Shown: piece after piece, positions 4,690-41,666 of the stretch | How the letters are laid out: each line of letters starts with the position of its first letter | Position numbering within the stretch: position 1 is the stretch's first letter | NCBI GenBank assembly: GCA_903892035.1 | Contig: CAITGV010000002.1 | Location: forward strand, 65,714 to 129,713 | Direction of reading: 5' to 3' | DNA: 64,000 nt | Source: an uncultured bacterium | GTDB taxonomy: Bacteria > Patescibacteriota > Minisyncoccia > Phycocordibacterales > UBA9973 | Position numbers and translations under genes: made by a program | Notes under the pieces: generated by a model | Databases searched by the model: none | Told to the model about the DNA's origin: nothing | The model's input: only the letters and a program-made list of their open reading frames with translations

Positions 4690-4729
4690 GCATTTATTAT
4701 ACTAAAAAAATATTCAATATGAAAGTTAT

Positions 4730-4858: not shown

Positions 4859-4859
4859 T

Positions 4860-5888: not shown

Positions 5889-6009
5889 AAATTTAATTAA
5901 AAATGATTAATTGATAAAAATATTTTTTATTACTATTTTATATTAGCATATCATATAAAATAGTCAAATTTTATAATGGGATACTAAAAAACTGTTGTAA
6001 AATAAGGGT

Positions 6010-7809
6010 TTATGACTTGCGTCCAGCACGCACACGGTCGAGTTCAGTCAAATACTTGTCACGTAAACGAACACTTTTAGGTGTAATTTCGAGGTATTCG
6101 TGGTCACTCATTACTTCCAAACCTCGTTCAATTGTAAGAGTAAATGGTGGCTTTAGATTAATAGCTTCATCTGTACCAGATGCACGCATATTTGTTAATT
6201 GTTTTCCTTTAATTGGGTTCACAGAAAGGTCGTCACCCTTTGTGACGTTTCCAATAACCATTCCTTCATATACTTCTGTACCGTGACCAATATAAAGGAC
6301 TCCACGTTCTTGTAAATTTCCAAGTGCAAAAGCAACAGCTTTTCCTGAAATCATTGATGTCATAGAACCAACATCTCTTTTTTTAATTTCTCCAGCATAA
6401 GGACGAAAACCAATAACGCGTGATGAAAGAATTCCTTCACCTTTTGTATCGATAACAAATTGTCCACGATAACCCAAAAGTCCACGAGTTGGAATTTCAA
6501 AAATCATTCTGACAATTCCATCTTTCTCACGCATATTTTGCATCATACCGCGACGCTTTGTAATTTTTTCTACAACTGCACCTGAAGTTTCTGTCGGTGT
6601 TTCGATTGTAACTTCTTCATAAGGTTCACTTTTTTCTCCGTCAACCATTTTAATAATTACTTGAGGTTGAGAAACCTGAAGTTCATATCCTTCACGACGC
6701 ATATTTTCAAGCAAAATTGCAATATGGAGTTCTCCACGTCCGTAAACGACATAACCTTCATGTGTCTCACCTTCTGGCGGTACGAAATCAACCTTAAGAC
6801 CAACGTTTATTTCAAGTTCGCGTTCTAGACGTTCACGAATTTGCCTAGCGTTAACAAACTTACCTTCTTTACCTGCAAAAGGAGAATCGTTAACTAAGAA
6901 GTTAAGGGAAATTGTCGGCTCATCGATTGCGATAGATGGAAGTGGTGGCATATCTGCATCGAGAGAAATTGACTCACCAATGAAGACGTCTGGAATTCCA
7001 GCAATAACGGCGATATCACCTACTGTAATTTCCTGTACATCTTTTCTTGTAATTCCTTCGAAAACAAAAAGTTTTGTAATTTTAGTTGAACGAGCAACAC
7101 CATTGTGATCTTTCACAAATATCTGACTCCCCATTTTTACACTTCCTCCGTATACACGAGCGATAGCTAGACGGCCAAGGAAATTGTCATAACCAAGATT
7201 AAATACTTGCGCCTGAAAAGCACCTTCTGCATTTTTTGAAGCTTCTGGAACTTCTTCGAGAACTAAATCAAGAAGTGGAGTTAAATCTTTTGATTCATCT
7301 GCTAGATTTTTCTTTGCAATTCCCTGACGTCCTATTGCATAAATAGTTTTGAAGTCAATTTGTTTATCTGTCGCTCCAAGCTCGATAAACAATTCTAAAA
7401 TTTCATCGTGCACGCGAGCTGGATCTGCGGCTGGTTTGTCAATTTTATTAATAACTACGATTGGCTGAAGTCCGAGCTCTAGAGATTTTTTCAAAACGAA
7501 ACGTGTCTGTGGCATTGGTCCTTCTTGAGCATCGACAAGTAAAAGCACAGAATCGATAGCGCGAAGCACACGCTCAACTTCAGAACCGAAGTCCGCGTGT
7601 CCCGGAGTATCCACGATATTTATCTTTGTTCCTTTGTAATTTACAGAAGTATTTTTTGAGTAAATAGTAATACCACGCTCTTGTTCAAGCGCATTTGAGT
7701 CCATTGTGACGCCCTCTTCCACCATTCCGCACTGCTTCATAAGCATATCGGTCAAAGTTGTCTTTCCGTGGTCCACGTGGGCTATAATTGCAATGTTTCG
7801 AATTTCCAT
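6010..7809 (-). CDS. typA: translational GTPase TypA/BipA
   Basis: AHVDHGKTT, DTPGHADF, NKID GTPase motifs; full-length BipA architecture. Confidence 0.9.
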   Translation of the reverse strand: MEIRNIAIIAHVDHGKTTLTDMLMKQCGMVEEGVTMDSNALEQERGITIYSKNTSVNYKGTKINIVDTPGHADFGSEVERVLRAIDSVLLLVDAQEGPMPQTRFVLKKSLELGLQPIVVINKIDKPAADPARVHDEILELFIELGATDKQIDFKTIYAIGRQGIAKKNLADESKDLTPLLDLVLEEVPEASKNAEGAFQAQVFNLGYDNFLGRLAIARVYGGSVKMGSQIFVKDHNGVARSTKITKLFVFEGITRKDVQEITVGDIAVIAGIPDVFIGESISLDADMPPLPSIAIDEPTISLNFLVNDSPFAGKEGKFVNARQIRERLERELEINVGLKVDFVPPEGETHEGYVVYGRGELHIAILLENMRREGYELQVSQPQVIIKMVDGEKSEPYEEVTIETPTETSGAVVEKITKRRGMMQNMREKDGIVRMIFEIPTRGLLGYRGQFVIDTKGEGILSSRVIGFRPYAGEIKKRDVGSMTSMISGKAVAFALGNLQERGVLYIGHGTEVYEGMVIGNVTKGDDLSVNPIKGKQLTNMRASGTDEAINLKPPFTLTIERGLEVMSDHEYLEITPKSVRLRDKYLTELDRVRAGRKS

Positions 7810-7907
7810 AAATAAAATTGTGAATATTAATAAATAAGTAAAAGTAAAACGCCCGAAGGCGAATGTACTTATACTATACCATAAAATCTTTTTTTTACCA
7901 AATCTTA

Positions 7908-9005
7908 CTATATGAGCTTTATTATATCGTGATAGGTCACGATGAGCATAAAGATGATGAGGATAGCAAAACCTATGGTGTTGATAGCGTTTGCTATTTT
8001 TGGATTTATACGCGAGCCTTTTATTTTTTCAATAATGAGGAAAAGTAATCGTCCCCCATCGAGCGCAGGAAATGGAAGTAAATTTATGATTGCTAGATTG
8101 ATTGAAATAAGTGCAGTAAATGAAAGCAAATAAATAAAACCAAAGTGATACGCGTCGCCGACTATTCCCACAATTCCGACAGGTCCTGCAATACCAGAAA
8201 GATCAGCGTGCCCGACTACAGCGTCGTGCACAAGTTTCCAAAGTGAGCCAGCTGTGTGCTTAGTCAAATCCCAAGTCAATTTCAAACCTTCCCAAACTGC
8301 AATATGAACTGGAAGTTTGAGTGTGCCTATCATATCCATCCCAATACCGATACCCGGCGTACCTGAAAGCAAATTTGCTTTTGGAGTAACTGTCGCAGAT
8401 TCTGAAACTCCAGCACGAGTATATAGAATATTTATTTCTTTTTCAGAATGCGAAGTTATGAATGATTTTAGAGTATCAGTATTTGGATTATTCAATAAAT
8501 CTTTTCCTTCCGCGAGTGAGATAATTTTATCTCCTGCTTTAAGTTTTGCAATATCTGCTGGTGATTTTGGAAGAACACTAGTAATGACAAGAGCAGTATT
8601 GTTTAAAGTGTAACCTGCGGGCTCCGCTCCAGTAGAAGTCGGAAGTCCAGACATAAAACCAATTGAAATCAAAAGCCAAGCAAGAATAAAATTAAAAAAT
8701 ACACCTGCTACGAGAACCATAGCTTTTATTCGAGCCGGCTTGTGCACAAAACTTCTATCACGCTCGGGACCATTTGTGTTTTCATCATCAGCATCTTCAC
8801 CAAAAATTTTCACAAAACCTCCAAATGGAAGCCAGTTTAGTGTGAACTCTGTCTCACCTTTTGTAAAAAGTTTACAAATGCGTGGTGGATATCCAAAACC
8901 AAATTCTGTAACTTTTATTCCAGATTTTTTTGCAGCAATATAATGCCCAAATTCGTGAGATACAACAAGCACTGCAAGTATTATTATAAAAATTATTATT
9001 GACAT
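7908..9005 (-). CDS. rseP: RseP-like site-2 protease (M50 zinc metalloprotease with PDZ)
   Basis: HEFGHYIAAK HExxH motif in TM1, PDZ region, C-terminal LDGG motif. Confidence 0.85.
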   Translation of the reverse strand: MSIIIFIIILAVLVVSHEFGHYIAAKKSGIKVTEFGFGYPPRICKLFTKGETEFTLNWLPFGGFVKIFGEDADDENTNGPERDRSFVHKPARIKAMVLVAGVFFNFILAWLLISIGFMSGLPTSTGAEPAGYTLNNTALVITSVLPKSPADIAKLKAGDKIISLAEGKDLLNNPNTDTLKSFITSHSEKEINILYTRAGVSESATVTPKANLLSGTPGIGIGMDMIGTLKLPVHIAVWEGLKLTWDLTKHTAGSLWKLVHDAVVGHADLSGIAGPVGIVGIVGDAYHFGFIYLLSFTALISINLAIINLLPFPALDGGRLLFLIIEKIKGSRINPKIANAINTIGFAILIIFMLIVTYHDIIKLI

Positions 9006-11456: not shown

Positions 11457-13424
11457 ATGAAGATAGTTACAGTCCTCCCAATTACAAAATCCCCAGGTGG
11501 CGATGAGCTCACATATTTCACCTCGCTTCCCGTTGAGGTTGGAAAGCTGGTTGGAATGCCTATCGGAAAAAGAACAGAGCACGGCATCGTGATGGCTGTA
11601 GCTGATGTTGGTGATATTAAATCAGAAATCAAAGACGCAGATTTTAATTTAAGAAAAATTCAAAGTGTTCACGGTAAAGCTTTTTTTTCAAAAAGTTTCC
11701 TTATCGCTTGTGAAAAGTCTGCAAAATATTTTCTTGGAAGCACAGGCCAAGTAGTATCTGCGCTAGTACCAGCGGTATTTATGAGAAATTGTGAAAAAAT
11801 TATTGAGTTAAATGAGGATGCTGTTGAATATACAGAAAATTTAAATAAAAATAATCAAAAATTAATTATTCAAGATGCTGATGAGGATCGCTTTTCTTTT
11901 TATCGATCTCTTATTCGTGAAGGTTTTGCGCAAAAAAAATCAATTTTTGTATGCTTACCAACCATCGCAGATATAAATTATTTTTCTGAAAAACTAACTA
12001 AGGGTATTGAAGATTATTCATACATTTTTCATAGTGAAATTTCAGAAAAAGAGATCTTGAAACGCTATGCAAAATTAAAAAATGAAAATCACCCATATAT
12101 CATTATTTCTACGGGTCAATATTTCCACTTAATTACCAATAATATTTCAACAATTATTCTCGACTGTGAAAATAGCGATGAATATAAATTATTTTCTCGA
12201 CCACATATAGATGTGCGTGTTTTTGCAGAATTATTTTCAGGAGAAGCTAAAATTAAATTGATACTGGGCGACAGATTGCTTCGACCAGAAACAATTGCGC
12301 GACTCAAAAATGGAGAATTTAGCGATGCCCTTCCACCATCATTTCGTCTAACAAAACCAGACAAAGTAAAGCTTGTGGATATGAATAAGATGCCTGTGGA
12401 CGAAAAAAATTCAATATTAGATACAGATTTTATTTTTTCAACAGAATCAAAAGAAATGATTACAAAGCAAATTTTAAAAGGTGATAATGTTTTCCTTTTT
12501 ACACTTAGAAAAGGTCTAGCTCCTGTGACAGTTTGCGGTCATTGCGGAAATACTCTTAAATGTGAAAAATGTGGCCATCTCTTTGCTTTATACAATTTAA
12601 AAAAAGCTGACGGTGAACCAGCTCGACTTTTTATTTGTAATTTCTGTAAAGAAAAAAAACCTTCCGACACTTCTTGCGAAAAATGCGGAAGTTGGAATAT
12701 GCAAACATTAGGCATTGGAACAGATCTTGTCACAGAAAAAGTTAAAGAAATATTCAATTTACCTGATGAAAATATTTTTCAAATTGATAAAACAGTAGCG
12801 AAGACTTCTGTGCAAGCTCGAAAAATTGCTGAAAATTTTTATAAAACAAAAGGCTCTATTATGGTTGGAACTGAGATGGCTCTTCGATATTTAAAACAAC
12901 CAATTCAAAACTCTGTCATTCTTTCTCTTGATACATTGTTTGGAGTACCAAGTTTTGCTTCTGGAAATCAAATGCTTTGCCTTGTTTCTGATATGCTTTC
13001 AATTACGGAAAAAAATTTTATTGCTCAGACGAGAAATTCAGATTCTCTAGTTTGGGAATGTTTGCGTGGCGGAAGTGCCATGCGTTTTTATGATGAAGAG
13101 TTGAAGGAAAGGAAAATTTTCAACTATCCGCCATTTTCTACACTTATTAAAATTACGCATGCAGGGAAAAAAGATCAAGCAAATGAAGCTCGTCAGAAAC
13201 TGACTGATTTATTTAAAGATTATAATCCAGACCTCGTAAACGGTTTTATGAATATTTCTGGCGGACTTTACACTACAAAACTTATAATGAAAATAAAACG
13301 CTCCGACTGGTCCCTTCCCGAAATTCACCCTTCTGGTTCTCTTTCCCCCACCCTTTCCCAAAAACTTCGTTCCCTTACTCCAAATTTTGATATAAATATT
13401 GAACCCGTAGAAATAATCAGATAA
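11457..13424 (+). CDS. priA: primosomal protein N' (PriA)-like, helicase motifs degenerate
   Basis: PriA N-terminal 3'-binding domain and Cys-rich zinc finger CGHCGN...CEKCGH...CNFC...CEKCG. Walker A (QDADEDRFS in place of GVTGSGKT) and DExH (DCEN) lost. Confidence 0.7.
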   Translation: MKIVTVLPITKSPGGDELTYFTSLPVEVGKLVGMPIGKRTEHGIVMAVADVGDIKSEIKDADFNLRKIQSVHGKAFFSKSFLIACEKSAKYFLGSTGQVVSALVPAVFMRNCEKIIELNEDAVEYTENLNKNNQKLIIQDADEDRFSFYRSLIREGFAQKKSIFVCLPTIADINYFSEKLTKGIEDYSYIFHSEISEKEILKRYAKLKNENHPYIIISTGQYFHLITNNISTIILDCENSDEYKLFSRPHIDVRVFAELFSGEAKIKLILGDRLLRPETIARLKNGEFSDALPPSFRLTKPDKVKLVDMNKMPVDEKNSILDTDFIFSTESKEMITKQILKGDNVFLFTLRKGLAPVTVCGHCGNTLKCEKCGHLFALYNLKKADGEPARLFICNFCKEKKPSDTSCEKCGSWNMQTLGIGTDLVTEKVKEIFNLPDENIFQIDKTVAKTSVQARKIAENFYKTKGSIMVGTEMALRYLKQPIQNSVILSLDTLFGVPSFASGNQMLCLVSDMLSITEKNFIAQTRNSDSLVWECLRGGSAMRFYDEELKERKIFNYPPFSTLIKITHAGKKDQANEARQKLTDLFKDYNPDLVNGFMNISGGLYTTKLIMKIKRSDWSLPEIHPSGSLSPTLSQKLRSLTPNFDINIEPVEIIR

Positions 13425-23055: not shown

Positions 23056-25320
23056 TTATATTTTCACTCCTTTAATTCTAAGTGAGTTCGACACCACACT
23101 TACACTACTAAACGCCATTGCAAGTCCTGCAAATACTGGCGATAAAAGCCAACCAAATATCGGGAAGAAAAGTCCTGCGGCCAAAGGTATACCTATTATA
23201 TTATATATGAAAGCCCAGAAAAGATTTTGCTTTATACCACGCATAGTTATCTTTGAAAGCTTGATTGCTTTTACGAGCTTGGAAATATCCCCTCCTAAAA
23301 GCGTAATGCCTGCTGACTCTATTGCAACATCGGTGCCAGTGCCCATTGCTATACCCACGTCAGCTATAGCGAGCGCTGGTGCATCATTTACGCCGTCTCC
23401 TGCCATAGCAACAACATGACCTTTTGATTGTAATTCTTTAATTTTTTTCAATTTATCGGCAGGCATTACATGTGCCACGACTTCATCAATTCCAACAAGC
23501 CCTGCAATATATTTTGCATTTTTTTCATCATCACCTGTAACCATAACTACCTTAATTCCAAGCTTATGCAGATCGGTGATTGCTTGCTTTGATTCAGCTT
23601 TTATCTCATCAGCAACCATTACAAAACCCAAAACCTCCTTCTTTGTTGCAAGAATTACTGGAGTCTTACCTTCAGATGTAAATTGTTCAATTTGTTTTTT
23701 ATCAAAATTAATTCCCAAACTTTCTATCAAATTTACATTTCCTGCGAAATATTCTACGCCTTCAATAGTTCCTTTTAATCCTTTACCAGATATACTTTCA
23801 AAATTTGAAATTTCTTTTGTTTGAATATTTTCTTTTTTTGCGTAATTTAAAATTGCATGAGCTATTGGATGTTCAGATTTATTTTCAAGTGACACTAGTA
23901 TAGAAAAATATTCTTGTTGAAGTTTGACTTCAACAACAGTTGGCTTACCGATTGTAATTGTTCCTGTCTTGTCTACTATTACCGTATCTACTTTATGTAA
24001 TTTTTCCAGAGTAGAAGCATCTTTTATTAAAATTCCTTCTTTCGCACCCTTACCGACACCCACAATAATTGCGGTAGGTGTAGCAAGACCAAGAGCACAA
24101 GGACAAGCAATAACCAAAACTGCAACAAAAGAACTTAGTCCATACGATAACGCTTGAGCAAAACCCATTGAACCACTTCCAAACAATATCCACATACCCA
24201 AAGTCAAAAATGCAATTACTAAAACAACTGGCACAAAAACTGCGGAAATTTTATCAGCAAGAGCTTGTATTGGGGCTTTTGAATTTTGCGCTTCCTCAAC
24301 CATTTTTATGATATGTGCAAGCATTGTTTCGTCTCCAACTTTTGTTGCTTTGAAAATAAAACTGCCAGTTGTATTTATTGTTCCAGACACAACACTGTCG
24401 CCCACTTTTTTCTCTGCAGGCATCGGCTCGCCTGTAATCATTGATTCGTCTATATATGATGACCCTTCCACCATAATTCCATCAACAGGAATTTTTGCGC
24501 CGGGTTTTATTATTATCAAATCTCCATGAACTACTTCACTCACGGGAATTTCAATTCCTGCCCAGTAGGAAGTACTCTTTCCTTCGGGGTCTGTGCCATC
24601 TCTAACCACACGAGCGGTCTTTACTTGTAAATTTAAAAGTTTTTCTATTGCATCTCCTGTTTTTAATTTTGATCTTGTTTCAAGATATTTTCCAAGGGCA
24701 ATAAAAGTTATGACAATAATAGTTACATCAAAATATGTATTAGAAACATTTGGAAAATTTTTCAAAAGTGTTTCTTCAAAGGCACCAACTATAAAACTAT
24801 AAATATAAGCAACAGAAGTTCCTATACCAATCAATGTGTCCATATTTGCTTTTCCATATCGCAAAAATCTATAAACTCCAAGTAAATAAGGTTTCCCAAC
24901 AACAAAAAGAGTGTAAGTCGCCATTACTGGCATTAAATGATGAAAAAATTCACTCCAGAGTAGTGACATAGGAGAAACAATATTTAATTGCGCAAAAATA
25001 TCCCAACCCATAATAAAAAAACTTATTATAGCTAGTGGAATAACAGAAAAAACTTTCACTTTCTTATTTTTCAATTCTATATATTTGTCATCTTTTTTAA
25101 TATTAATTTCCGAAGACGAAAGTGAGTAACCAAGTGGATTTAATTTATTATTTAAAATTTCTATATTCACATTATTATTTGAATAAATTTTTGCATTCTC
25201 TGTCCCTGGATTAACTTCAACTTTTTCTACACCATCGATTTTTTTGACAGTTCTTTCAATAATGCTTGCACAAGAAGCACAATGCATACCTTTTACTTTA
25301 TAAATTCTTGTATTATTCAT
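23056..25320 (-). CDS. copA: copper-translocating P1B-type ATPase CopA
   Basis: [11 protein letters not shown] domain, [27 protein letters not shown]. Confidence 0.9.
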
Positions 25321-25343: not shown

Positions 25344-25607
25344 CTATTTTCTTTTCAAACGATAGACCTTTAGTATTTCTTGTTTCGCTTTTACCTCTTT
25401 GCCTTTACGTATTTGATCCACAACACAACATCCGAGATGCTCTTCCATAAGCACATCTTCTACACCAGAAAGAGCCTGCTTTACAGCAGACGTTTGTGTA
25501 ATGACGTCAATACAGTAAATATCTTTTTCAATCATTTCTTGAAGTCCTCTCACCTGCCCTTCAATAATTTTTAATCTGCGCACGAGTTTCAATTTATTTT
25601 TATCCAT
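25344..25607 (-). CDS. csoR: CsoR/RcnR-family metal-sensing transcriptional repressor
   Basis: [16 protein letters not shown] and C...H...C ligand pattern. ORF track starts at 25628 inside the operator palindrome; Met at 25607 (MDKNKLK) preferred. Confidence 0.8.
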
Positions 25608-25615
25608 ACTAAAAG

Positions 25616-25638
25616 CATATACCCCCATAGGGTATATG
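25616..25638. promoter_or_regulatory. candidate CsoR operator: catataccc-N5-gggtatatg palindrome overlapping a TTGACA -35 box
   Basis: 9-bp perfect inverted arms, GC-rich core of the TACCC-N-GGGTA type, located 9-30 bp upstream of the csoR start on the minus strand. Confidence 0.6.
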
Positions 25639-25676
25639 TCAAATAATAAAGCTGCTTTTTTATTTATATAATTAAA

Positions 25677-27119
25677 TTATTTTTCTAAAGTACAAATCTT
25701 CTTACTCAATAAATGACCGTTTTCATTTACATCATAAATTAAAATATTACAAAAAATCATTTCCACATTTTGAATTTCCTCATCTGAAATATTTTCAATA
25801 TATTTCATCAATGCTCGTATCGCATTACCGTGAGATACCATCAATACATTTTTACCGTCCTTCAGCAAAGGTAGTATTTTTTCCAAATAAAATGGAACTA
25901 CGCGATCATAAACCATTTTCAAAGTTTCTCCATTTGGTACTGGGTAGTCCCAGCCACGACGTAATTTTTCAAATTCCTCTTCACCAATTAATTTCTCTAC
26001 TTCCCATTTATTTTTCCCAGTATAATCACCGTAACTTCTTTCATTTAGTGCACTTACGTGCTCAGTAGGTACATCATACTGACAATCTTCATCTAAAATA
26101 CATGTTAGAGTTTCAATAGAGCGGACTTGCATAGAAGCAAAAGCGTAGTCAAATTTTACATCTTTAATTAATTTTCCCAATTCTTCAGAAAGCTCGAAAC
26201 CTTTTGGGGTAAGATGAATGTCTCGTGAGCCAGTCCAAAGTCCCTTTTCATTCCACTCCGATTCTTGGTGTCGTGCCACATACAATTTACCCATTTTTTT
26301 AATATTTTCACATTTATCTTCAAAACAAATCGTCAGTTTTTTATTGGGATGATTTTCACTTTCTAAGATAATTTTATTCATCATATCTACTGCTTCAACT
26401 GGATATTTCCCAATTGCCGTTTCTTCTGAAAGCATCACAGCACTTGTACCTTCGACAATAGCGTCAGCAACATCAGAAACTTCAGCTCTTTCCGGTGTAG
26501 AATTATTTGTCATTGATAACATCATCTCTGTTGCGACAATTACAGGAATTTTTGCTATATTTGTTTTTGCAACTATAGATGCTTGAATAAATGGAATTTG
26601 CTCAAGTGGTATTTCTTTACCCAAATCCCCTCTTGCGATCATTATAGCATCTGAAACCGCAATAATTTCATCTATATTATCTACAGCAATTTTTCTTTCA
26701 ATTTTTGAAATTAATTTAATTTTTCCAGCAAATTCCTTAATGGCATTTTTATATGAAATTACATCATCTGCAGAACCAACAAATGATGCAGCTACATAAT
26801 CAAAATTATTTTTTATACCAAAAGCCAAATGCTTTTTATCTTCATCATTTATAGTAGAACTTTCTGTCCTGTCGTATGTATGTGAACTATCTAACTGAAT
26901 TCGAGGACCTGGTAAATCTTGTAACAAAAATATTTTCTTATTGTATTTTTTTTCAACTTCTCGAATCATTTCAATTTGCTTCATTCGAGTCTCATCGTCT
27001 ACCCATGAAAAATTGAAGCGAACAATATCGAGCCCAGCTTCAACCATTTTCGAAAAAACCTCAATACTACTTGATGCTGGACCAATAGTAGCAATAATTT
27101 TAACTTTTTTATTTTCCAT
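25677..27119 (-). CDS. fusion protein: pyruvate kinase A-domain (no B or C domain) plus 2,3-BPG-dependent phosphoglycerate mutase (histidine phosphatase)
   Basis: N-terminal half matches the PK barrel (KIIATIGPAS, MIARGDLG, ATEMMLSM, MLSEETA) but lacks the lid and C domain. C-terminal half has dPGM motifs (ARHQESEWNEKGLWTGSRDIHLTPKG, MVSHGNAIRAL). Confidence 0.75.
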   Translation of the reverse strand: MENKKVKIIATIGPASSSIEVFSKMVEAGLDIVRFNFSWVDDETRMKQIEMIREVEKKYNKKIFLLQDLPGPRIQLDSSHTYDRTESSTINDEDKKHLAFGIKNNFDYVAASFVGSADDVISYKNAIKEFAGKIKLISKIERKIAVDNIDEIIAVSDAIMIARGDLGKEIPLEQIPFIQASIVAKTNIAKIPVIVATEMMLSMTNNSTPERAEVSDVADAIVEGTSAVMLSEETAIGKYPVEAVDMMNKIILESENHPNKKLTICFEDKCENIKKMGKLYVARHQESEWNEKGLWTGSRDIHLTPKGFELSEELGKLIKDVKFDYAFASMQVRSIETLTCILDEDCQYDVPTEHVSALNERSYGDYTGKNKWEVEKLIGEEEFEKLRRGWDYPVPNGETLKMVYDRVVPFYLEKILPLLKDGKNVLMVSHGNAIRALMKYIENISDEEIQNVEMIFCNILIYDVNENGHLLSKKICTLEK

Positions 27120-28371
27120 AATTTAAAATTATATTATTAATTTCCATTAGTCTATTGTATTTCGCTACTCGTTCACCTCTCGCAAGTGATCCAAATTTAG
27201 CTAAATCACAAGACAAACCTACTGCCAAGTCAGCAATAAATGTATCAGTAGTATCACCAGATCGGTGCGAGATAAAGGTCTTCCATCCAACCTCATTTGC
27301 AAATAAAATTGCATCTATAGTTTCAGATAGTGTTCCAATTTGATTTGGTTTTATTAAAGCAGAAGTGACTGAATTATTTTCATTTGCAATTTTCATCCTT
27401 GAAACATTTGTGACCAATAAATCATCTCCAACAATTTCTACTTTATTTAACAATTTATTTTTTAACTTTGCAAAACCTACAAAACTATCCTCTGCTAAAC
27501 CATCTTCAATGGTAATAATTGGATTTGTATTACATAGGTCCACATACCATTCAATTAATTTATCTTCATCCAAGACTTTATTTTCACCATTAATTTTAAT
27601 TTCATAATTACCATTTTTGTAAAAATTCGAGGCTGCTGCATCAATTCCAATTTTAATAAGATTTGTATTATAACCTGCATTATTAATTGCCTTTTCAATA
27701 TAGTCAAAAACTATTTCATTTGTCGCAAGTTTTGGGGCAAAACCACCTTCATCACCCAGACTTACTGCATAACCGTCTTTCTTTAATATTTTTTTTAACT
27801 CAAAAATGATTTCTGAAATTGCTTGAATTTTTTTATTAAAATCTAAAATACCTACTGCACCTATCATAAATTCTTGAATATCAATACCACTGTCAGCATG
27901 AGCACCACCATTTAAAATATTGAACATTGGTTCTGGTATTTTAAATTGATTTTTTTCAGCAAGAGAACCAAGATACTCAAATAATTCAATATTTTTATTT
28001 TTTGCAGAAGCACGAGCAAAAGCAAGGGACACACCAAGTATTGCATTGCTTCCAAGTCTTTTTTTGTTTACTGTTCCATCGAGCTCAATTAAAAATTTAT
28101 CTAAACTCCTTTGGTCAAAATCATGCCCTACAATTTTTTCTGAAATTTCTTTATTACAATTATCAACTGCATTTAGTACCCCTTTGCCACCATATCGAGT
28201 ACTATCACCATCACGAAGCTCCCAAGCCTCGTGTATTCCTGTACTTGCCCCAGAAGGCACAGACGCTGTGCCATTTACTCCATTCACACCGATATTTACC
28301 TCAATGGTCGGATTGCCACGAGAATCTATAATTTCCCTTGCATTTAAGTAGGTTATTTTTTCCATTCCCAT
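27109..28371 (-). CDS. eno: enolase
   Basis: Enolase N-terminal REIIDSRGNPTIEV and C-terminal IKPNQIGTLSET signature. Confidence 0.95.
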   Translation of the reverse strand: MGMEKITYLNAREIIDSRGNPTIEVNIGVNGVNGTASVPSGASTGIHEAWELRDGDSTRYGGKGVLNAVDNCNKEISEKIVGHDFDQRSLDKFLIELDGTVNKKRLGSNAILGVSLAFARASAKNKNIELFEYLGSLAEKNQFKIPEPMFNILNGGAHADSGIDIQEFMIGAVGILDFNKKIQAISEIIFELKKILKKDGYAVSLGDEGGFAPKLATNEIVFDYIEKAINNAGYNTNLIKIGIDAAASNFYKNGNYEIKINGENKVLDEDKLIEWYVDLCNTNPIITIEDGLAEDSFVGFAKLKNKLLNKVEIVGDDLLVTNVSRMKIANENNSVTSALIKPNQIGTLSETIDAILFANEVGWKTFISHRSGDTTDTFIADLAVGLSCDLAKFGSLARGERVAKYNRLMEINNIILNYGK

Positions 28372-28390: not shown

Positions 28391-30343
28391 TTATTTTCTC
28401 CTATAACGAAAACCAAGTACTCCACCCACTAAAGCTACCGTAAATACACTTACTGCTACTGGAATTTTTGCTCCGGTTTTAGTTACTGTGGCAATTTGAG
28501 TACTTTTAGGAATACTTTCTTCAATTGGTTTTTCTTCATTCTTACTAGCAAGGACAGTCCTTCCTAGTGGGGCAGTAATTTTCTTTTTTGCTTCTACTAC
28601 TGTTTTAATTGGAGTTACAATTGGTAATATTTGATTCATATTTGGTGTAATGACATCTTTTACTATAATTTGATCTACTGGTGGTGTGGTAATTATATTT
28701 GTTCCAGAATTAATATTTGTTGAATTAATTATTTCCCCTCCGCCACCGCCACCGCCAGTAATATTTTGTTCAATTGGTTTTGAAACTGAATGCATTATTT
28801 GTGCCCAAGTTTTTCCAAGTGCTCCAGGTATTGCATAACTTGTCGCCCAAATACGATTTGAAATAATTTCATTTGCTGGCAAAGCACCGCCATCACTCGT
28901 CTGCTGACTTGCCAAATAATCCAAACCCGTCTTTCCATTTTTACTCCAATTTACTGAAAGTGCTGATTGTGCTTGTAATGCCCAACTTGTCGAAGAAACA
29001 TTTCCCCAACCACCATCGTTTGCTTGTTGTGAATAAATATAATTTCCTGCTTTCGAGAGAGCGATCGATACTCCGGAAACATTACTAAATTGTGATAGTG
29101 CCATAATTCCAGCTCCAGTCATGTCTACACTTTCGTCCCACGAACCATCGGAATTTTGTTTTGAAATAATATATGAAATATCTTTTGAAATAATATCATC
29201 ATTAGAGTTATAACCTGCACTTGATAATGGAATTAAAGAAAAAATATCATCATTTATTAAAGATGCGCCCCCAAATTGTGTACCATCGAATGCTTTTACT
29301 ATTGGAGAAATAAAATCTGCACCGTGAAAAGAATACGGGTTTTGATTTAATGCAAGTAGTGCCATCGAATGGCGTTCATTATCTGTAAGATTTCCACTAA
29401 CAGTATTGTGAGTAGTCATATAATTTAAAATATTTGAATTTGATGAATTATTTGAAGAATAAGCAATTGCTACCCAGTCAGTATACAAATCTGCACCACC
29501 AAATGATCCATCACTTCCCTGTACGCCATTTAAATATGAAATTGCATTTGGTACAGAAAAAATTGGTGGTGGATTTCCGCCACCACTTCCACCCCCACTA
29601 CCCGAAACAGGAGCAATTAGAGAATGAATATTTAATGTGACTTGGTCACCAATATTATTATCAGAAAAATCATGAAGTTGTATCACAATACTGTCACCTG
29701 TATTTACTGGCAGCATTACAATACCCAATTGCGCAGAATTTCCATTTTGTAAAATCGTCCAATATTGGCTATTTGGATCAGCTGTAACATTATTGATTTG
29801 AGTAATAAATAAACCCATACTTGGATATTGATTTGAAAGTTTTACGCTGGAAATCGCTCCATTTGCAATTGCTGTTTCAAGGGCACAAATTGCAAAATAT
29901 GTGCCATCTTCAGAATAATTGTGTACTACTCCGTCATTATCTGTGGCACTACAACTTGTTGGTACATCCACATCTGCAGAAATATTTAAATGTGTCACAA
30001 TTGCATTTACATTCACTGTATATGTGGTTGTCTGCGTTCCATCTGTAATAGTTAGAACTTGATTCGTTGCGGGTGCAGAACTATCAAAACCAGTTATGTT
30101 TGTGGCGGTAATTGTTTCAACTTTAGTACTTGCATCACTGTATGTTCCTGTCACAACAAGTCCAGTGATGTCCAAAGTGTCTCCGACACTATATGTTAAT
30201 TTATTTTCAGGAGTTGTAATAGTGATACTTGAGAGAGTTGGGTCTAGTGGAGGGACAATGTCGTCAGCAAAAACCTTAAAACCAAAACTAAATATAACAA
30301 TTAATAAAAATACTTTTAACTTTTTCATTATTCTAATTTCCAC
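28391..30343 (-). CDS. secreted, C-terminally membrane-anchored protein: Ig-like domain, DUF4430 (transcobalamin-like), prenyltransferase/terpenoid-cyclase-like repeats
   Basis: Signal peptide, DUF4430-like segment (GTYFAICALE...WTILQNG), repeated SDGSFGG/SDGSW/NDGGWG alpha-toroid repeat motifs, Gly-rich linkers, C-terminal TM plus RYRRK. Confidence 0.6.
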   Translation of the reverse strand: MEIRIMKKLKVFLLIVIFSFGFKVFADDIVPPLDPTLSSITITTPENKLTYSVGDTLDITGLVVTGTYSDASTKVETITATNITGFDSSAPATNQVLTITDGTQTTTYTVNVNAIVTHLNISADVDVPTSCSATDNDGVVHNYSEDGTYFAICALETAIANGAISSVKLSNQYPSMGLFITQINNVTADPNSQYWTILQNGNSAQLGIVMLPVNTGDSIVIQLHDFSDNNIGDQVTLNIHSLIAPVSGSGGGSGGGNPPPIFSVPNAISYLNGVQGSDGSFGGADLYTDWVAIAYSSNNSSNSNILNYMTTHNTVSGNLTDNERHSMALLALNQNPYSFHGADFISPIVKAFDGTQFGGASLINDDIFSLIPLSSAGYNSNDDIISKDISYIISKQNSDGSWDESVDMTGAGIMALSQFSNVSGVSIALSKAGNYIYSQQANDGGWGNVSSTSWALQAQSALSVNWSKNGKTGLDYLASQQTSDGGALPANEIISNRIWATSYAIPGALGKTWAQIMHSVSKPIEQNITGGGGGGGEIINSTNINSGTNIITTPPVDQIIVKDVITPNMNQILPIVTPIKTVVEAKKKITAPLGRTVLASKNEEKPIEESIPKSTQIATVTKTGAKIPVAVSVFTVALVGGVLGFRYRRK

Positions 30344-30894
30344 TCGATGATATCACCAATATGAGGAATATATGAAGAGATGCCGACAGACGCCTCTTTG
30401 CCATTAATATAGTAAATAATATTTTTTCCATTTCCTTGATGAATATCACCAATATCTGTAACAAAAAATCCTAGTCCTGAATATTCTTTTCCCTTAAAAT
30501 TTAATAAATTATTTTTCTGTCCATTTAGCATTGTTTTATATAAATTGTCCCCAGAAATAAAAGGTAGATTTATGTTTTTATTTTCAATTTTAAAAGTAAT
30601 ATTTTCAGGGATAGTATTAATACCTGTTGAAATCACTTGTGCTAAATTTATATTATTTAATATTTTTTGATTTGGAATATTTACAGATAGATTTTCTGTT
30701 GGAGTACTTTTAATTACTGTTTCTTTTTTATTTCTTGCAGACAAAAATACAATAATTCCTGCTGAAATTATAAGTAAAATTGTTAATATAATAATTTTTT
30801 TTAAAAATTTTGACATAAATAAATGGTACAAAATATAACTAAATACAATATTTCGTCTTCGACTCGAACGATGTGAAAAAGAATACTCTTTCAC
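30328..30894 (-). CDS. membrane-anchored DUF4430 (transcobalamin-like) domain protein
   Basis: N-terminal TM then GFFVTDIGDI...YYINGKEASVGISSY...GDIIEWK, typical DUF4430. Preceded by the cobalamin-riboswitch-like leader. Start may be the internal Met at about 30817. Confidence 0.6.
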   Translation of the reverse strand: MKEYSFSHRSSRRRNIVFSYILYHLFMSKFLKKIIILTILLIISAGIIVFLSARNKKETVIKSTPTENLSVNIPNQKILNNINLAQVISTGINTIPENITFKIENKNINLPFISGDNLYKTMLNGQKNNLLNFKGKEYSGLGFFVTDIGDIHQGNGKNIIYYINGKEASVGISSYIPHIGDIIEWKLE

Positions 30895-30913: not shown

Positions 30914-31080
30914 ATAAAAAAATTCCTTCGGAGAGGAATTTTTGCGCATGCTAATGCAATACGTTTCCTGCTCGGGACTTACATCATATTAGTAATCGGA
31001 CTTTTCCATTTTATTGGAATCACCGTAGCGGCACTGTGCAGGATTCACACCTGCTTCCCTAATATGAATATTATTTTTTT
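30914..31080 (-). promoter_or_regulatory. cobalamin (B12) riboswitch-like leader with intrinsic terminator expression platform
   Basis: Minus-strand RNA contains AGGGAAGCAGGUGUGAAUCCUGCACAGUGCCGCUACGGUGA, matching the cobalamin aptamer core GGGAA..GGUG..AAUCC..GC.G.CCCGC.AC.GU. Followed by hairpin AAUUCCU-cuccga-AGGAAUU plus U7 at 30914..30943. Confidence 0.7.
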
Positions 31081-31092
31081 AAATGCTTCAAC

Positions 31093-38897: not shown

Positions 38898-41666
38898 ATG
38901 CCTCCACACAAAGAAATACCAGAAATACTACTGAAACCATACGACCCAAAAGCGACTGAATCTCGAATATATAAGCTCTGGGAAGAGAGTGGTTTTTTTA
39001 ACCCAGAAAATTGCATCGAAGCCGGAATAATAAAAGAGGATGCAAAGCCATTTACAATAATGATGCCACCACCAAATGTCACTGGAGTACTTCATATGGG
39101 ACACGCAATGATGATTACACTCGAAGACATTATGATTCGTTATAAAAGAATGCAAGGCTACCGCACTCTCTGGCTCCCTGGTACAGATCACGCAGCAATT
39201 GCTACTCAATCAAAAGTTGAAAAAGAAATTTGGAAAAAAGAAGGTTTAAGTAGGCACGATTTAGGTCGCGATGAACTTTTTCGTCGAACGTCTGAATTTG
39301 CACAAAAAAGTCACGATACAATTGTCTCCCAAATAAAAGTAATGGGCGCTTCTTGTGATTGGAGTCGTGAAGCATTTACTCTCGACAATAGCCGAAATTT
39401 GGCCGTAAATACAATGTTTAAAAAAATGTATGATGATGGGCTAATTTATCGCGGACATAGAGCTGTAAACTGGGATCCAAAAGGTCAGACGACAATTGCC
39501 GATGATGAAATAGTTTACGAAGAACGTAAAGCAAAAATTTATACTTTTAAATACTCAAAAGATTTTCCAATTTCAATTTCTACAACTCGCCCCGAAACAA
39601 AAGTTGGTGATACCGCAGTTGCAGTGCACCCCGAAGACGAACGCTATGCTAAATACATCGGTCAAACTTTTCATATTGATGATTTTTGTGGAGTTGCTCT
39701 TGATATAGTAATCATTGCAGATAAAATTGTTGAAAAGGATTTTGGTACAGGAGCTCTCGGTGTGACTCCCGCACATAGTATGACTGACTGGGAAATTGCC
39801 GACAGACACAACTTACCTCGACCACAAGTAATAAATGAATATGCAAAAATGATGGTGGGCGACGATCGTATAAAAGGTAAAAAAACCACCGATGCACGAG
39901 AAGTCATTGTCGAGTGGTTGAGAAATGAGGGACTTTTAGAAGCAGAAGAAGAGGTCTCGCAAAATGTCGGTACAGCAGAAAGAACTGGTGGCATCATCGA
40001 GCCACTTCCAAAACTTCAATGGTTCATCGCTGTAAATAAAGAATTTACTATTCCCTATTCTGAAATTCCTGGAATAAAATCTGGAGATAAAACCACATTA
40101 AAAGAAATTATGCGTAAAGCGGTTGAAAACGAATCGATAAAAATTTTACCAGACTATTTTAATAAAACATATTTTCATTGGATAGAAAATCTTCGTGATT
40201 GGTGTATTTCAAGACAAATCTGGTATGGCCACAGAGTGCCTGTATGGTACGACGGTGTGGGCACTGAAATAATGCCAAAGGAACGTTCAATTTATCTTGC
40301 TAGACATGGTCAATGCGAAGCAAATGTTAGTAATATTATTCCGACACAAAACGATGCAGACACTTCTCCATTAACTGACCTAGGAAAAGAACAAGCAAAA
40401 GCTCTCGGTGAATCCTTAAAAGATAAAAATATTACTCGTATCATTTGTTCTAAAATGAAACGTTCACAAGACACAGCAAAAATAGTGGCAGAAGTTTTGG
40501 GGCATTCTGATGAAATAATTGAAACATGGAACGATTTGCATGAAGTATGTTTCCCAGATGAGCTTGCGGGAAAAGAAAAATCAAAAAATTATAATCCCCT
40601 CGATGAATCTGTATCGCACGGAATGGGAGAGAGCTTAACCGAACTTGAAGATAGAGCTCGAGGTGTAATTGAAAAAATTATAAATTTAGGTAACCCAGGT
40701 GAAGTATTAATTGTGGGTCACGGAGGTTTTAATTCAATACTTAAAGCTGTGCATGATGGACTTCCAAAAGAAAAATTTGTTGAACATAGAAATGTGATGG
40801 GCGCAATGAAAAATGGTTCATGTTTATCACTGCATTTCATGCGTCTTCCTGATCAAGAAAAAGAGGGGCTTTTTCAAGATGAAGATACTCTTGATACTTG
40901 GTTTTCAGCTGGTATGTGGACGTTTTCAACTCTTGGTTGGCCAAACAAAACAGAAGATTTAAAAATTTACCATCCGACAGATGTGCTTGAAACTGGTTAC
41001 GAAATTCTCTTCTTCTGGGTTGCTAGAATGATTCTTATGTCTGGATATGCCTTGGGCACAATTCCATTTAAAAATGTTTACCTACACGGTACAGTTCGCG
41101 ATGGACAAGGTAGGAAAATGAGTAAATCACTTGGAAATGGTATAGACCCACTCGATATTGCAGATAAATACGGAGCAGATGCAGGACGAATGGCGATAAT
41201 AGTAGGAACAGCCGCTGGAACTGATAGCAAAATTTCAGAAGATAAAATTAAAGGCTACAAACATTTTGCAAATAAAATTTGGAATATTACACGTTTTGTA
41301 CTTTCAAATTCTGATATTAAAAATATTCACGCAACTCTAAATGAAAAGGATGGAGCTCTAACGCTCGCTCGTGACACAATATTTAGAGAAATTACAAATG
41401 AACTTGATGAATATAAATTTCACATTGCAACTGAAAAAATTTATCAATACATTTGGCATGAGTTTGCAGATAAAATACTCGAAGATAGTAAAATTATTTT
41501 TACAGATGGTAGTGAAAATGATAAAATTTCAAGAGAAGCTTTCCTACAAGAAACACTTCAGAAATGCTTAGTAGTATTGCATCCATTTATGCCTTACGTT
41601 ACAGAAGAAATTTGGAAAGTTACTGGAAACAACAGTTTGCTAATGATTGAAAAATGGCCTTCCTAA
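38898..41666 (+). CDS. valS: valyl-tRNA synthetase with an inserted histidine-phosphatase (PGM-family) domain
   Basis: PPPNVTGVLHMGH and KMSKSLGN class I motifs, ValRS editing and anticodon domains. Between GHRVPVWYDG and TLDTWFSAGMW (normally about 35 aa) lie about 200 aa with LARHGQCEAN, SKMKRSQDTA and LIVGHGGFNSIL motifs (about 40257..40888). Confidence 0.85.
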   Translation: MPPHKEIPEILLKPYDPKATESRIYKLWEESGFFNPENCIEAGIIKEDAKPFTIMMPPPNVTGVLHMGHAMMITLEDIMIRYKRMQGYRTLWLPGTDHAAIATQSKVEKEIWKKEGLSRHDLGRDELFRRTSEFAQKSHDTIVSQIKVMGASCDWSREAFTLDNSRNLAVNTMFKKMYDDGLIYRGHRAVNWDPKGQTTIADDEIVYEERKAKIYTFKYSKDFPISISTTRPETKVGDTAVAVHPEDERYAKYIGQTFHIDDFCGVALDIVIIADKIVEKDFGTGALGVTPAHSMTDWEIADRHNLPRPQVINEYAKMMVGDDRIKGKKTTDAREVIVEWLRNEGLLEAEEEVSQNVGTAERTGGIIEPLPKLQWFIAVNKEFTIPYSEIPGIKSGDKTTLKEIMRKAVENESIKILPDYFNKTYFHWIENLRDWCISRQIWYGHRVPVWYDGVGTEIMPKERSIYLARHGQCEANVSNIIPTQNDADTSPLTDLGKEQAKALGESLKDKNITRIICSKMKRSQDTAKIVAEVLGHSDEIIETWNDLHEVCFPDELAGKEKSKNYNPLDESVSHGMGESLTELEDRARGVIEKIINLGNPGEVLIVGHGGFNSILKAVHDGLPKEKFVEHRNVMGAMKNGSCLSLHFMRLPDQEKEGLFQDEDTLDTWFSAGMWTFSTLGWPNKTEDLKIYHPTDVLETGYEILFFWVARMILMSGYALGTIPFKNVYLHGTVRDGQGRKMSKSLGNGIDPLDIADKYGADAGRMAIIVGTAAGTDSKISEDKIKGYKHFANKIWNITRFVLSNSDIKNIHATLNEKDGALTLARDTIFREITNELDEYKFHIATEKIYQYIWHEFADKILEDSKIIFTDGSENDKISREAFLQETLQKCLVVLHPFMPYVTEEIWKVTGNNSLLMIEKWPS

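Follow-up and report, generated by a model that had tools for sequence, protein, structure and literature searches.

The pyruvate kinases (PKs) closest to the protein described here are the K+-independent enzymes of the PykA type, including PK from M. tuberculosis (NF004491/TIGR01064), which share with it the A-domain barrel, the catalytic and metal-binding residues, Leu113 and a basic residue at position 117. In descriptions of PK the lid (B) domain belongs to the catalytic machinery, and standard accounts place the allosteric effector site in the C domain. A signature separates the K+-dependent (T113/K114/E117) from the K+-independent (L113/Q114/K117) enzymes (PMC8835810, PMC4284704). The lid residues R119, K206 and D177 touch the nucleotide in canonical PK, and the B domain of the K+-independent M. 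tuberculosis enzyme is reported not to move on substrate-effector binding (PMC8835810). A PK deprived of its lid is represented by the 5SC8 series (447 aa), a human liver PK engineered by B-domain deletion for crystallography, which aligns with the present protein in one stretch (5-255 versus 58-302), uniquely among the PDB chains listed, as follows from the removal of the lid in that construct. The construct is man-made and keeps its C domain, whereas the natural PK half, hereafter mini-PK, has lost the C domain too and displays a conserved hairpin in place of the lid.

Fusions of glycolytic enzymes include PGK-TPI of Thermotoga. The TPI-GAPDH of stramenopiles also comprises same-pathway enzymes in one chain (PMC3527533). 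Both join consecutive steps, whereas the fusion described here joins steps 8 and 10, with step 9, enolase, encoded by a separate overlapping gene, and the family displays both domain orders. A PK paired with a mutase of the 2,3-BPG-dependent phosphoglycerate mutase (dPGM) family is known from PKM2/PGAM1, in which the non-tetrameric PK is the active form (PMC11183095); that pairing is regulated and non-covalent and occurs in human tumour cells, whereas the bacterial one is covalent and phosphotransfer within it would be by analogy only. Enzyme I, PPDK and PEP synthase likewise tie a PEP-binding barrel to a phospho-His domain, a likeness that is functional only; neither the PEP-utilizers barrel PF02896 nor the phosphohistidine domain PF00391 matches the fusion protein at E <= 0.01. 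As judged from conserved residues and gene context, the gene product is probably a bifunctional lower-glycolysis enzyme, an unregulated, K+-independent minimal PK and a dPGM flanking enolase.

Architecture of the PK-dPGM gene and its two halves

The host is a tiny uncultured Parcubacteria-type bacterium. The whole stretch of DNA analysed, 64,000 nucleotides and referred to as the window, contains the following features:

27109..28371, minus strand: enolase gene, 420 aa, directly upstream of PK-PGM (Enolase_N E 7e-51, Enolase_C E 5e-90)
27109..27119, minus strand: 11-nt overlap ATGGAAAATAA between the end of eno and the start of PK-PGM (read from the sequence)
25677..27119, minus strand: PK(A-domain)-dPGM fusion gene, stop codon included (ORF list; Pfam PF00224 and PF00300; same 480-aa gene called in ENA, NCBI and Logan assemblies)
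26352..27119, minus strand: PK A-domain (beta/alpha)8 barrel, aa 1-256 (PF00224, TIGR01064, PDB alignments, AF2, Foldseek)
26871..26915, minus strand: mini-lid beta-hairpin, motif D68-L-P-G-P-R73-I-Q-x3-S-H80-T-Y82-D (gap in PDB alignments, AF2 strands, column conservation)
26289..26351, minus strand: interdomain linker, aa 257-277 (pLDDT dip; length differing among homologues)
25680..26288, minus strand: short-form 2,3-BPG-dependent phosphoglycerate mutase domain, aa 278-480 (PF00300, TIGR01258, 1FZT and 1E58 alignments)
26268..26270, minus strand: codon of the dPGM nucleophile H284
25614..25642, minus strand: promoter-like site and palindrome CATATACCC-TAT-GGGGGTATATG, downstream limit of the unit (pattern scan)

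The fusion ORF of the first-pass annotation is present. It encodes 480 aa on the minus strand and starts with ATG, and reading the junction bears out the overlap claimed at first pass with the eno gene directly upstream: the PK-PGM ATG at 27119 falls within the final enolase codons, a layout typical of translational coupling. At the other end of the unit the palindrome precedes csoR-copA, the genes there matching Trns_repr_metal and HMA/E1-E2 ATPase, and is read as a putative operator.

The PK half matches PF00224 (E 9.6e-73) in two stretches, one of which places aa 88-244 on profile positions 172-328, and aligns with E. coli PykF also in two (query 4-75 versus 2-73 and 90-263 versus 170-344), so that 14 residues (76-89) replace the B domain of about 96 residues (PykF 74-169). 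No Pfam match to PK_C (PF02887) occurs in the 480-aa protein; the A domain stops near aa 256, and the dPGM comes next. The PDB matches of the PK half are pyruvate kinases, down to E 2.5e-57 and including PykF and 2E28. The AF2 model displays a mean pLDDT of 90.7, with values above 90 across the PK barrel, and its top Foldseek matches are all PKs (E 1e-25). Among NCBIfam subfamily models the PykA-like NF004491 scores best for the PK half, and TIGR01064 gives 307.7 bits against a cut-off of 306.4, which relatives straddle (294.6-332.8). This confirms the architecture, a PK barrel domain (A) that has neither B nor C domain and is fused to a dPGM, and the sequence motifs quoted for it at first pass all occur, at aa 8-16, 160-167, 197-203, 229-235, 282-290, 296-307 and 430-437.

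The mutase half matches PF00300 (His_Phos_1) over aa 279-470 (E 3.1e-34) and scores 157.5 bits with TIGR01258 against a cut-off of 81.7, while the ribazole and phosphoserine phosphatase models reach at most 71 bits, far under their own cut-offs. A dPGM is recognised by a histidine-phosphatase fold with an RH(G)xxxWN nucleophile motif, a second His (HGN), a Glu as general acid/base and Arg residues that bind phosphate, and the mutase half has these features. Every one of the 121 mutase sequences compared contains N290, R333, E360, R388, H430 and N432, and 120 contain R283 and H284; R387 is present in the mutase half and falls outside the list of columns at least 95% identical across the same 121. 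The S. pombe dPGM (1FZT, 211 aa) aligns with the mutase half in one unbroken stretch (4-200 versus 10-208, E 4e-34), and E. coli 1E58 aligns in two; S. pombe dPGM and the mutase half both lack the insertion of about 25 residues found in the E. coli and yeast enzymes, with all catalytic residues present. Unlike S. pombe dPGM, to which identity is about 40% at best, the mutase half forms part of a polypeptide with two enzymes. The ValRS insert that the first-pass annotation counted as another histidine-phosphatase fusion in the window is likewise real: the class I aminoacyl-tRNA synthetase encoded at 38898..41666 (plus strand) carries His_Phos_1 at aa 465-628. A common origin of this insert and the dPGM domain was considered and rejected, the two being 25% identical and the insert lying outside the dPGM subfamily.

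The linker between the two halves is flexible, with a pLDDT of 74-79 that falls below 50 at aa 269-271, and its length varies among homologues. The model has a pTM of 0.65 and therefore gives no support for a fixed PK-PGM interface.

Catalytic residues and the hairpin in place of the lid

The PK residues R34, N36, D68, K139, E141, D165, T197, S231 and E233 are invariant in both a 63-sequence and a 124-sequence set, the latter comprising family members with an overall identity of only about 50%. We take them to be the counterparts of rabbit R72, N74, D112, K269, E271, D295, T327, S361 and E363, from the established numbering and the PykF and 2E28 alignments. In addition, both sequence sets retain the nucleotide-pocket residues P14, R34 and N36 and an aromatic residue at position 39. 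The mini-PK family can accordingly serve as a definition of the minimal PK, in which both accessory domains are gone and all A-domain catalytic residues are kept.

The lid is replaced by a hairpin whose strands are modelled at aa 73-75 and 80-82 (pLDDT about 79). Its columns are strongly conserved across the 124 sequences, with R73 in 123, H80 in all, Y82 in 113 and, at the entry, L69 in 115. In alignment, R73 falls on K117 and L69 on L113 of the K+-independent-type PKs, whose motif is DLQGPKIR. Signature comparison further gives Pro at rabbit position 114, a variable position 120 and Arg, not Lys, at 117. Trp39 stands at rabbit position 77, where canonical PK has His77, and S38, the counterpart of the K+ ligand Ser76, is not conserved in the 124 sequences. 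Compared with the K+-independent PKs, the mini-PK thus comprises (i) a 14-aa hairpin with R73 and H80 for the lid, (ii) Arg at 117, (iii) Trp at 77, and (iv) the fusion to dPGM.

These features suggest that the mini-PK is K+ independent and that R73, H80 and W39 have catalytic roles. Arg73, at position 117, probably gives the charge that K+ gives elsewhere, and we propose that the nucleotide contacts of lid R119 and K206 are taken over by His80, Tyr82 and Trp39, the last at the His77 position. Homology between H80 and lid K206 found no support: when 10 mini-PKs and 14 canonical PKs were aligned with MAFFT L-INS-i, the hairpin fell only beside the entry strand. As the B domain of M. tuberculosis PK does not move, loss of the lid would be easier to tolerate in the K+-independent branch. 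On the other hand, since R119, K206 and D177 contact the nucleotide, ADP-dependent catalysis by the mini-PK may be weak or altered. We know of no enzymology of any lidless PK.

The first-pass annotation also raised a scaffold role for the PK half, which is disfavoured because the A-domain catalytic residues and the hairpin are conserved across the 124 sequences. The fuller form of this idea, which we regard as very unlikely, is that the PK half is dead or crippled and kept as an oligomerisation or scaffold partner of dPGM and enolase, PEP being handled by a canonical PK, PPDK or PEP synthase. Pseudoenzymes normally shed catalytic residues, whereas here the nine catalytic and metal residues of the A domain persist, as do the Arg and His of the hairpin, at the low overall identity given above, and the mini-PK also exists as a free-standing protein of 260 aa. 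No second pyk lies between 57.7 and 136.5 kb of the contig record (157.8 kb in all), about 79 kb; outside this interval a second PK is possible, and a canonical PK or PPDK/PEP synthase could sit in the rest of the genome. Consistent with a dead PK are the absence of the lid residues that contact the nucleotide in canonical PK (PMC8835810) and the proposal of Jaffe et al. that PEP synthetase acts instead in CPR genomes without pyruvate kinase (PMC7304191).

Homologues, fusion permutations and gene neighbourhoods

The identical 480-aa protein is found on 5-6 contigs of up to 158 kb in NCBI, ENA and Logan assemblies, and the best relative among the listed GTDB-representative matches is 65% identical. 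Both domains are present in all of the 120 best homologue clusters, 24 in the PK-PGM order and 96 in the PGM-PK order. That a pyk fragment and gpmA were wrongly joined by misassembly or a frameshift, a possibility that the first-pass annotation had named, could appeal to the relatives L001 and L004, in which dPGM and mini-PK are separate genes. The reading frame is, however, unbroken and the linker is modelled, and the artefact is refuted by the identical copies in independent assemblies together with the clusters of the same and of the reversed order; its probability is practically nil.

The mini-PK also occurs (i) free-standing, at about 265 aa; (ii) in split genes beside each other, dPGM|miniPK|eno; (iii) fused to enolase, or as a glycerate-2-kinase-enolase-miniPK fusion; (iv) fused to glycerate 2-kinase, on at least 24 contigs; and (v) as a 262-aa gene following a glycerate-2-kinase-enolase fusion. 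The fusions P0125 and P0150 are singletons and may be gene-calling read-throughs. A full-length PK is present in some Parcubacteria (L037). The view that a lidless PK is unusual therefore stands against textbook PKs and fails within Parcubacteria/Paceibacteria, where mini-PKs with neither lid nor C domain are widespread and the standard form. On a single origin of the PK-PGM order the neighbour-joining trees, which have no support values, disagree: the order forms one clade for dPGM, with the split dPGM of L004 nested in it, and is scattered over three groups for PK.

In each of the seven related loci examined, a 2-hydroxyacid dehydrogenase gene adjoins the mini-PK, and enolase, dPGM or both belong to the cluster or lie close to it. 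The cassettes seen include eno|PK-PGM|2-Hacid_dh and 2-Hacid_dh|PGM-PK|eno; enolase adjoins the fusion in L090 and L091 and is either adjacent or close by in L001 and L083, while the mini-PK cassette of L087 has no dPGM within 6 kb. The window itself contains the enolase and no 2-hydroxyacid dehydrogenase gene. The same contig also encodes, just outside the window, a TPP enzyme and an aldehyde dehydrogenase. Taken together, the fusion permutations and synteny are evidence that would put the mini-PK last in the route 2PG->PEP->pyruvate.

A further explanation, in our view unlikely, is that the lidless, non-tetrameric PK barrel passes the PEP phosphoryl group to His284 of the dPGM, or to 3PG with formation of 2,3-BPG, the mutase being self-primed with no need of 2,3-BPG from outside, and ATP synthesis secondary or absent. 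Human PKM2 is reported to be a PEP-dependent histidine kinase on PGAM1 H11, active as monomer or dimer and inactive as tetramer (PMC11183095), and the fusion is without the C domain that, according to the legend of Figure 6 in PMC10099687, makes the small C-C tetramer interface. The absence of a lid to block a protein substrate, the flexible linker, and the listing of the PEP- and metal-binding residues and H284 (120/121) as invariant agree with such a transfer, as does the fusion, in both orders, of two non-consecutive steps. The mini-PK with the same R/H hairpin is, however, also found alone, fused to enolase or to glycerate 2-kinase, and in the L087 cassette, so its core job appears independent of dPGM. 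The retained nucleotide-pocket residues also argue against it, and loss of the PK-derived ATP would presumably be costly for a fermentative organism. The corresponding assignment by analogy, that the PK barrel might be an intramolecular PEP-dependent histidine kinase of His284 or a 2,3-BPG synthase, an ancient bacterial counterpart of the PKM2->PGAM1 H11 transfer and a convergent analogue of the Enzyme I/PPDK design, is quite unlikely.

Proposed function and significance

Under the preferred reading of a working lower-glycolysis enzyme, both PK and mutase activities would be retained. The mutase half would convert 3-phosphoglycerate to 2-phosphoglycerate via phospho-His284, the coupled enolase would yield PEP, and the kinase half, its A-domain active site whole, would convert PEP and ADP to pyruvate and ATP. 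With the allosteric, tetramerising C domain lost, the mini-PK has neither an allosteric site nor the C-C interface of the tetramer and should be unregulated. The fusion to dPGM and the coupling to enolase would hold the three enzymes stoichiometric and possibly associated, and channelling among them is conceivable. The TPP enzyme and aldehyde dehydrogenase are read as a pyruvate-consuming pair, which we counted in favour of a working mini-PK.

A search of titles and abstracts, combining pyruvate kinase with Parcubacteria, CPR, B domain and fusion, found no description of a natural lidless PK or of a PK-PGM fusion, and fusions are not mentioned in the CPR survey of Jaffe et al. (PMC7304191). 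The PK-PGM design, conserved in this bacterial group, is thus apparently previously undescribed. The mini-PK family offers a direct way to test what purpose the lid serves, particularly in the K+-independent branch, and the covalent PK-dPGM pair provides an independent evolutionary hint on the phosphotransfer from PK to PGAM that is debated for human cells. In addition, the fusion permutations of the cassette of 2-hydroxyacid dehydrogenase, glycerate 2-kinase, dPGM, enolase and mini-PK act as a natural Rosetta stone that points to a module leading from glycerate/3PG to pyruvate. In the largest survey of CPR genomes only about one third had a PK, and it was left open whether divergent enzymes had been missed (PMC7304191). 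As mini-PKs score at the trusted cut-off of TIGR01064, the reported patchiness of PK in CPR may be partly a detection artefact, in which case estimates of the ATP yield of Parcubacteria would change.

Domain architecture and reality of the fusion

The gene encoding the fusion of a PK A-domain (aa 1-256) with dPGM (aa 278-480) lies directly behind enolase:
25677..27119, minus strand: PK-PGM open reading frame, 480 aa, ATG start
27109..28371, minus strand: enolase open reading frame, overlapping the PK-PGM start

Read directly, the enolase end (...AAT TAT GGA AAA TAA) contains the PK-PGM ATG (ATGGAAAATAA), so that the open reading frame and 11-nt overlap described in the first-pass annotation are borne out by both the list of open reading frames and the junction sequence. 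The Pfam matches comprise (i) two stretches of the PF00224 PK barrel (E 9.6e-73), of which the one listed pairs aa 88-244 with profile positions 172-328, and (ii) PF00300 His_Phos_1 (E 3.1e-34, aa 279-470), with no Pfam match to PK_C in the 480-aa protein. In NCBIfam, the protein scores 307.7 bits against the pyruvate kinase model TIGR01064 (cut-off 306.4), the PykA-like NF004491 being the top-scoring subfamily for the PK half, and 157.5 bits against the dPGM model TIGR01258 (cut-off 81.7). Alignment to the solved structure of E. coli PykF pairs residues 4-75 with 2-73 and 90-263 with 170-344, leaving 14 residues (76-89) in place of ca. 96 residues of the B/lid domain; among the PDB chains listed, only the engineered lid-deleted human PKL (5SC8 series) aligns to the PK half in one piece. 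The C-terminal half matches the 211-aa S. pombe dPGM (1FZT) in a single stretch (E 4e-34), whereas against the longer dPGMs of E. coli and yeast it aligns in two pieces, which identifies it as a short-form dPGM; judged from its sequence, it is consistent with dPGM in every respect examined. Pfam, NCBIfam and the PykF alignment thus agree with the earlier proposal of a PK barrel devoid of B and C domains, as do PF00300, TIGR01258 and 1FZT with that of a C-terminal dPGM.

NCBI, ENA and Logan assemblies carry the identical 480-aa protein on 5-6 contigs of up to 157,814 bp, the window corresponding to about 65,767-129,766 of ENA ERZ27313596 k141_432308. Both Pfam domains are present in 120/120 of the best homologue clusters, 464-533 aa in length with one exception of 434 aa, and identity to the window protein ranges from 44 to 73% among 62 aligned homologues. 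A frameshift or assembly error separating the halves, a concern of the first-pass annotation, is excluded by these identical independent copies and two-domain clusters; an artefact, refuted on the same grounds, retains a negligible probability. Source names include Zambryskibacteria, Nomurabacteria, Paceibacteria, Parcubacteria and Minisyncoccia, and database labels read 'pyruvate kinase' or 'dPGM'.

The survey of related genomes proposed earlier reveals that the fusion recurs in two domain orders, PK-PGM, as in the window, in 24 clusters and PGM-PK in 96, as cut by BLAST. Whichever the order, the PK match of each cluster spans ca. 255 residues without a break, and all 120 therefore lack the B and C domains. 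In neighbour-joining trees, the dPGM domains of the PK-PGM order form one clade, with a split dPGM (locus L004) nested within, and the PK domains of that order are spread over three groups; since the two trees disagree, they do not fix the number of order-swap events.

Active sites and the lid-replacing hairpin

The PK residues R34, N36, D68, K139, E141, D165, T197, S231 and E233 are invariant in 124 PK-domain sequences, corresponding to rabbit R72, N74, D112, K269, E271, D295, T327, S361 and E363, as mapped through structure alignments and established numbering. The dPGM residues N290, R333, E360, R388, H430 and N432 are found in 121/121 dPGM-domain sequences, and R283 and the nucleophile H284 in 120/121. 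Architecture and catalytic residues are thus conserved under ca. 50% overall divergence. The reading of the PK half as a dead scaffold clashes with these invariant residues and with the existence of free-standing mini-PKs, and we regard it as quite improbable.

The structure prediction of the PK portion, suggested at first pass, returned a confident barrel. The AlphaFold2 model of the fusion (mean pLDDT 90.7, pTM 0.65) shows the lid-replacing segment as a β-hairpin (strands 73-75 and 80-82, pLDDT about 79) within an otherwise very confident PK barrel, followed by a floppy interdomain linker (pLDDT <50 at 269-271); the top Foldseek matches are PKs only. The protein fits PK by sequence, fold and catalytic residues and lacks the textbook B and C domains, and is therefore named a minimal PK-family enzyme, not a standard PK.

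The lid-replacing segment is strongly conserved in the 124 sequences as D68-L-P-G-P-R73-(V/I)-Q-x3-(G/S)-H80-T-Y82-D (L69 115/124, R73 123/124, H80 124/124, Y82 113/124). In an alignment with canonical relatives, R73 and L69 pair with K117 and L113, respectively, of the DLQGPKIR motif; L113/Q114/K117 is the signature of K+-independent PKs, versus T113/K114/E117 in K+-dependent ones (PMC8835810, PMC4284704). The position of the K+ ligand S76 varies (S 86, F 24, A 9 among the 124). In rabbit PK, the nucleotide is contacted by the lid residues R119, K206 and D177, which weakens the reading of a lidless PK as active, and the adenine pocket is edged by His77 (PMC8835810). The latter position is occupied here by Trp39, a Trp in 117/124 sequences. 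In the K+-independent PK of M. tuberculosis, the B domain is reported not to move when substrate and effector bind (PMC8835810). Conceivably, a lineage already without need for K+ and lid closure could reduce the lid to a hairpin, whose Arg (R73) and His (H80) would, together with Trp39, make up for the lost lid contacts. To our knowledge, enzyme assays have never been reported for a lidless PK, the chief weakness of the reading as a working PK.

Relatives and gene neighbourhoods

An exhaustive search with the PK half against 50%-identity representatives returned, among the best 150, ca. 13 clusters of free-standing mini-PKs (251-269 aa), along with several longer proteins. Many PKs of ca. 340-355 aa align in two stretches, a size that suggests a retained B domain and no C domain. 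Pfam identifies among the longer proteins (i) a mini-PK-enolase (P0125, 679 aa), (ii) a glycerate 2-kinase-mini-PK (P0133, 690 aa), and (iii) a glycerate 2-kinase-enolase-mini-PK triple (P0150, 1092 aa); P0125 and P0150 are singletons and could be read-through calls. A further glycerate 2-kinase-mini-PK (P0319, 703 aa; 6001..8112 in loci L088/L089) is found on 24+ contigs, and a glycerate 2-kinase (DUF4147+MOFRL)-enolase fusion of ca. 825 aa in at least 45 clusters (P0274-P0318), one named Kaiserbacteria. In locus L087, this last fusion (6001..8487) is preceded by a 2-hydroxyacid dehydrogenase and followed by a 262-aa mini-PK, all overlapping, an arrangement that points to a module running from hydroxypyruvate/glycerate → 2PG → PEP → pyruvate.

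GTDB genomes hold free-standing mini-PKs of ca. 265 aa in Yanofskybacteria, Paceibacteria and Saccharibacteria that keep the GPR...GH motif, as well as split versions in the order 2-hydroxyacid dehydrogenase / dPGM (209 aa) / mini-PK (267 aa, 4-nt overlap) / enolase (L001) or 2-hydroxyacid dehydrogenase / mini-PK / DHODH / dPGM (L004). The mini-PK is thus repeatedly fused or adjacent to pathway neighbours. The R/H hairpin also occurs in free-standing, enolase-fused and glycerate-kinase-fused forms and is hence a feature of the mini-PK, not of the PGM fusion. Independent losses of the lid are seen elsewhere (L007 142..1284, L029 2661..4010, L012 3308..4093 and L062 6001..7347): lidless PKs retaining the C domain occur in one Dehalococcoidales and one Solirubrobacterales MAG, a CPR3 protein has 261 aa, and in L062 a hairpin-less Parcubacteria mini-PK is fused to a LOG/SLOG (lysine-decarboxylase-like) domain by Pfam. 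Even shorter deletions are present in a CPR3 and a Parcubacteria protein. One Parcubacterium encodes a full-length PK of 547 aa.

Among fusion loci, L090 (Zambryskibacteria, 3790..7434) reads eno / PK-PGM / 2-Hacid_dh and L091 (4028..7710) 2-Hacid_dh / PGM-PK / eno. Gene order is mirrored along with domain order, yet all genes are co-stranded, a pattern for which neither a simple inversion nor a circular permutation by tandem duplication accounts. The Nomurabacteria locus L083 has the order of L091, its otherwise tight cassette broken by a RelB/YafQ toxin-antitoxin pair (11509..12049) between PGM-PK and eno. For the cassette dehydrogenase, the top model, under cut-offs, is the archaeal-type glyoxylate/hydroxypyruvate reductase, or PGDH in L087.

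In the window, eno / PK-PGM is followed by a separate csoR-copA unit and preceded by a riboswitch-headed run:
30958..31084, minus strand: AdoCbl riboswitch, 53 bits against a gathering score of 50
30328..30894, minus strand: DUF4430 protein gene, first of the run behind the riboswitch
28391..30343, minus strand: gene for a 650-aa Big_3/DUF4430/squalene-cyclase-like surface protein
25614..25642, minus strand: perfect palindrome CATATACCC-TAT-GGGGGTATATG, overlapping a TTGACA/TATGCT promoter-like site
25344..25628: CsoR-family repressor gene, directly behind the palindrome/promoter-like site
23056..25320: copper P-type ATPase gene, behind the promoter-like site with csoR
38898..41666, plus strand: class I aminoacyl-tRNA synthetase, ValRS-like, 922 aa, His_Phos_1 insert at aa 465-628

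The palindrome looks like a putative CsoR operator, and with it the eno-PK-PGM unit comes to its end. The riboswitch heads a co-stranded run of the DUF4430 protein, the surface protein, enolase and PK-PGM; given the single strand and the gap of only 19 nt between the 650-aa gene and eno, the last two may be co-transcribed with the B12-binding/uptake-like unit. A short distance upstream, this run is preceded by a B12-dependent class II RNR and Cob_adeno_trans. The synthetase insert, recognized at first pass as the window's second histidine-phosphatase fusion, retains the RHG motif; at only 25% identity to the dPGM domain, it represents an independent fusion, whose architecture recurs in a Nomurabacteria genome (L083 542..4072, 1176 aa). 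A little past the right edge of the window, a 551-aa TPP-dependent enzyme of pyruvate-decarboxylase/acetolactate-synthase type stands beside an aldehyde dehydrogenase (L086 1..2105), a possible pyruvate → acetaldehyde → acetate route in this organism. The ca. 79 kb of contig examined showed neither another pyk nor a PPDK or PEP synthase.

Function and significance

The fusion is probably a bifunctional lower-glycolysis enzyme, in which a dPGM and a minimal PK of predicted activity flank the coupled enolase in the pathway: the short dPGM would convert 3PG to 2PG through phospho-His284, the enolase would be the source of PEP, and the minimal, non-allosteric, probably K+-independent PK would yield pyruvate and ATP. 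We infer the retention of both activities, as well as any channelling between the fused or coupled enzymes.

Alternatively, the lidless PK could prime the tethered mutase from PEP. For human PKM2, phosphorylation of PGAM1 His11 with PEP as donor has been reported, by monomers and dimers and not by tetramers (PMC11183095), a picture matched by a PK without C domain or lid covalently joined to dPGM. The same mini-PK occurs without dPGM in other cassettes, so that priming, which we deem unlikely, would be an added function at most. By Pfam, the fusion falls outside the Enzyme I/PPDK family, although its barrel-plus-phospho-His layout is analogous.

The literature search found no published description of the PK-PGM architecture. 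The largest CPR metabolic survey is silent on fusions, detected PK in just one third or so of the genomes, lists PGM as absent from some Parcubacteria clades, and allows for divergent enzymes below its HMM thresholds (PMC7304191). Mini-PK scores of 294.6-332.8 bits, either side of the TIGR01064 cut-off, are consistent with under-detection of these enzymes. Biochemical proof, above all of PEP-to-His transfer, would make the finding weightier; the PK-PGM fusion itself is real and conserved, a new form of known enzymes.
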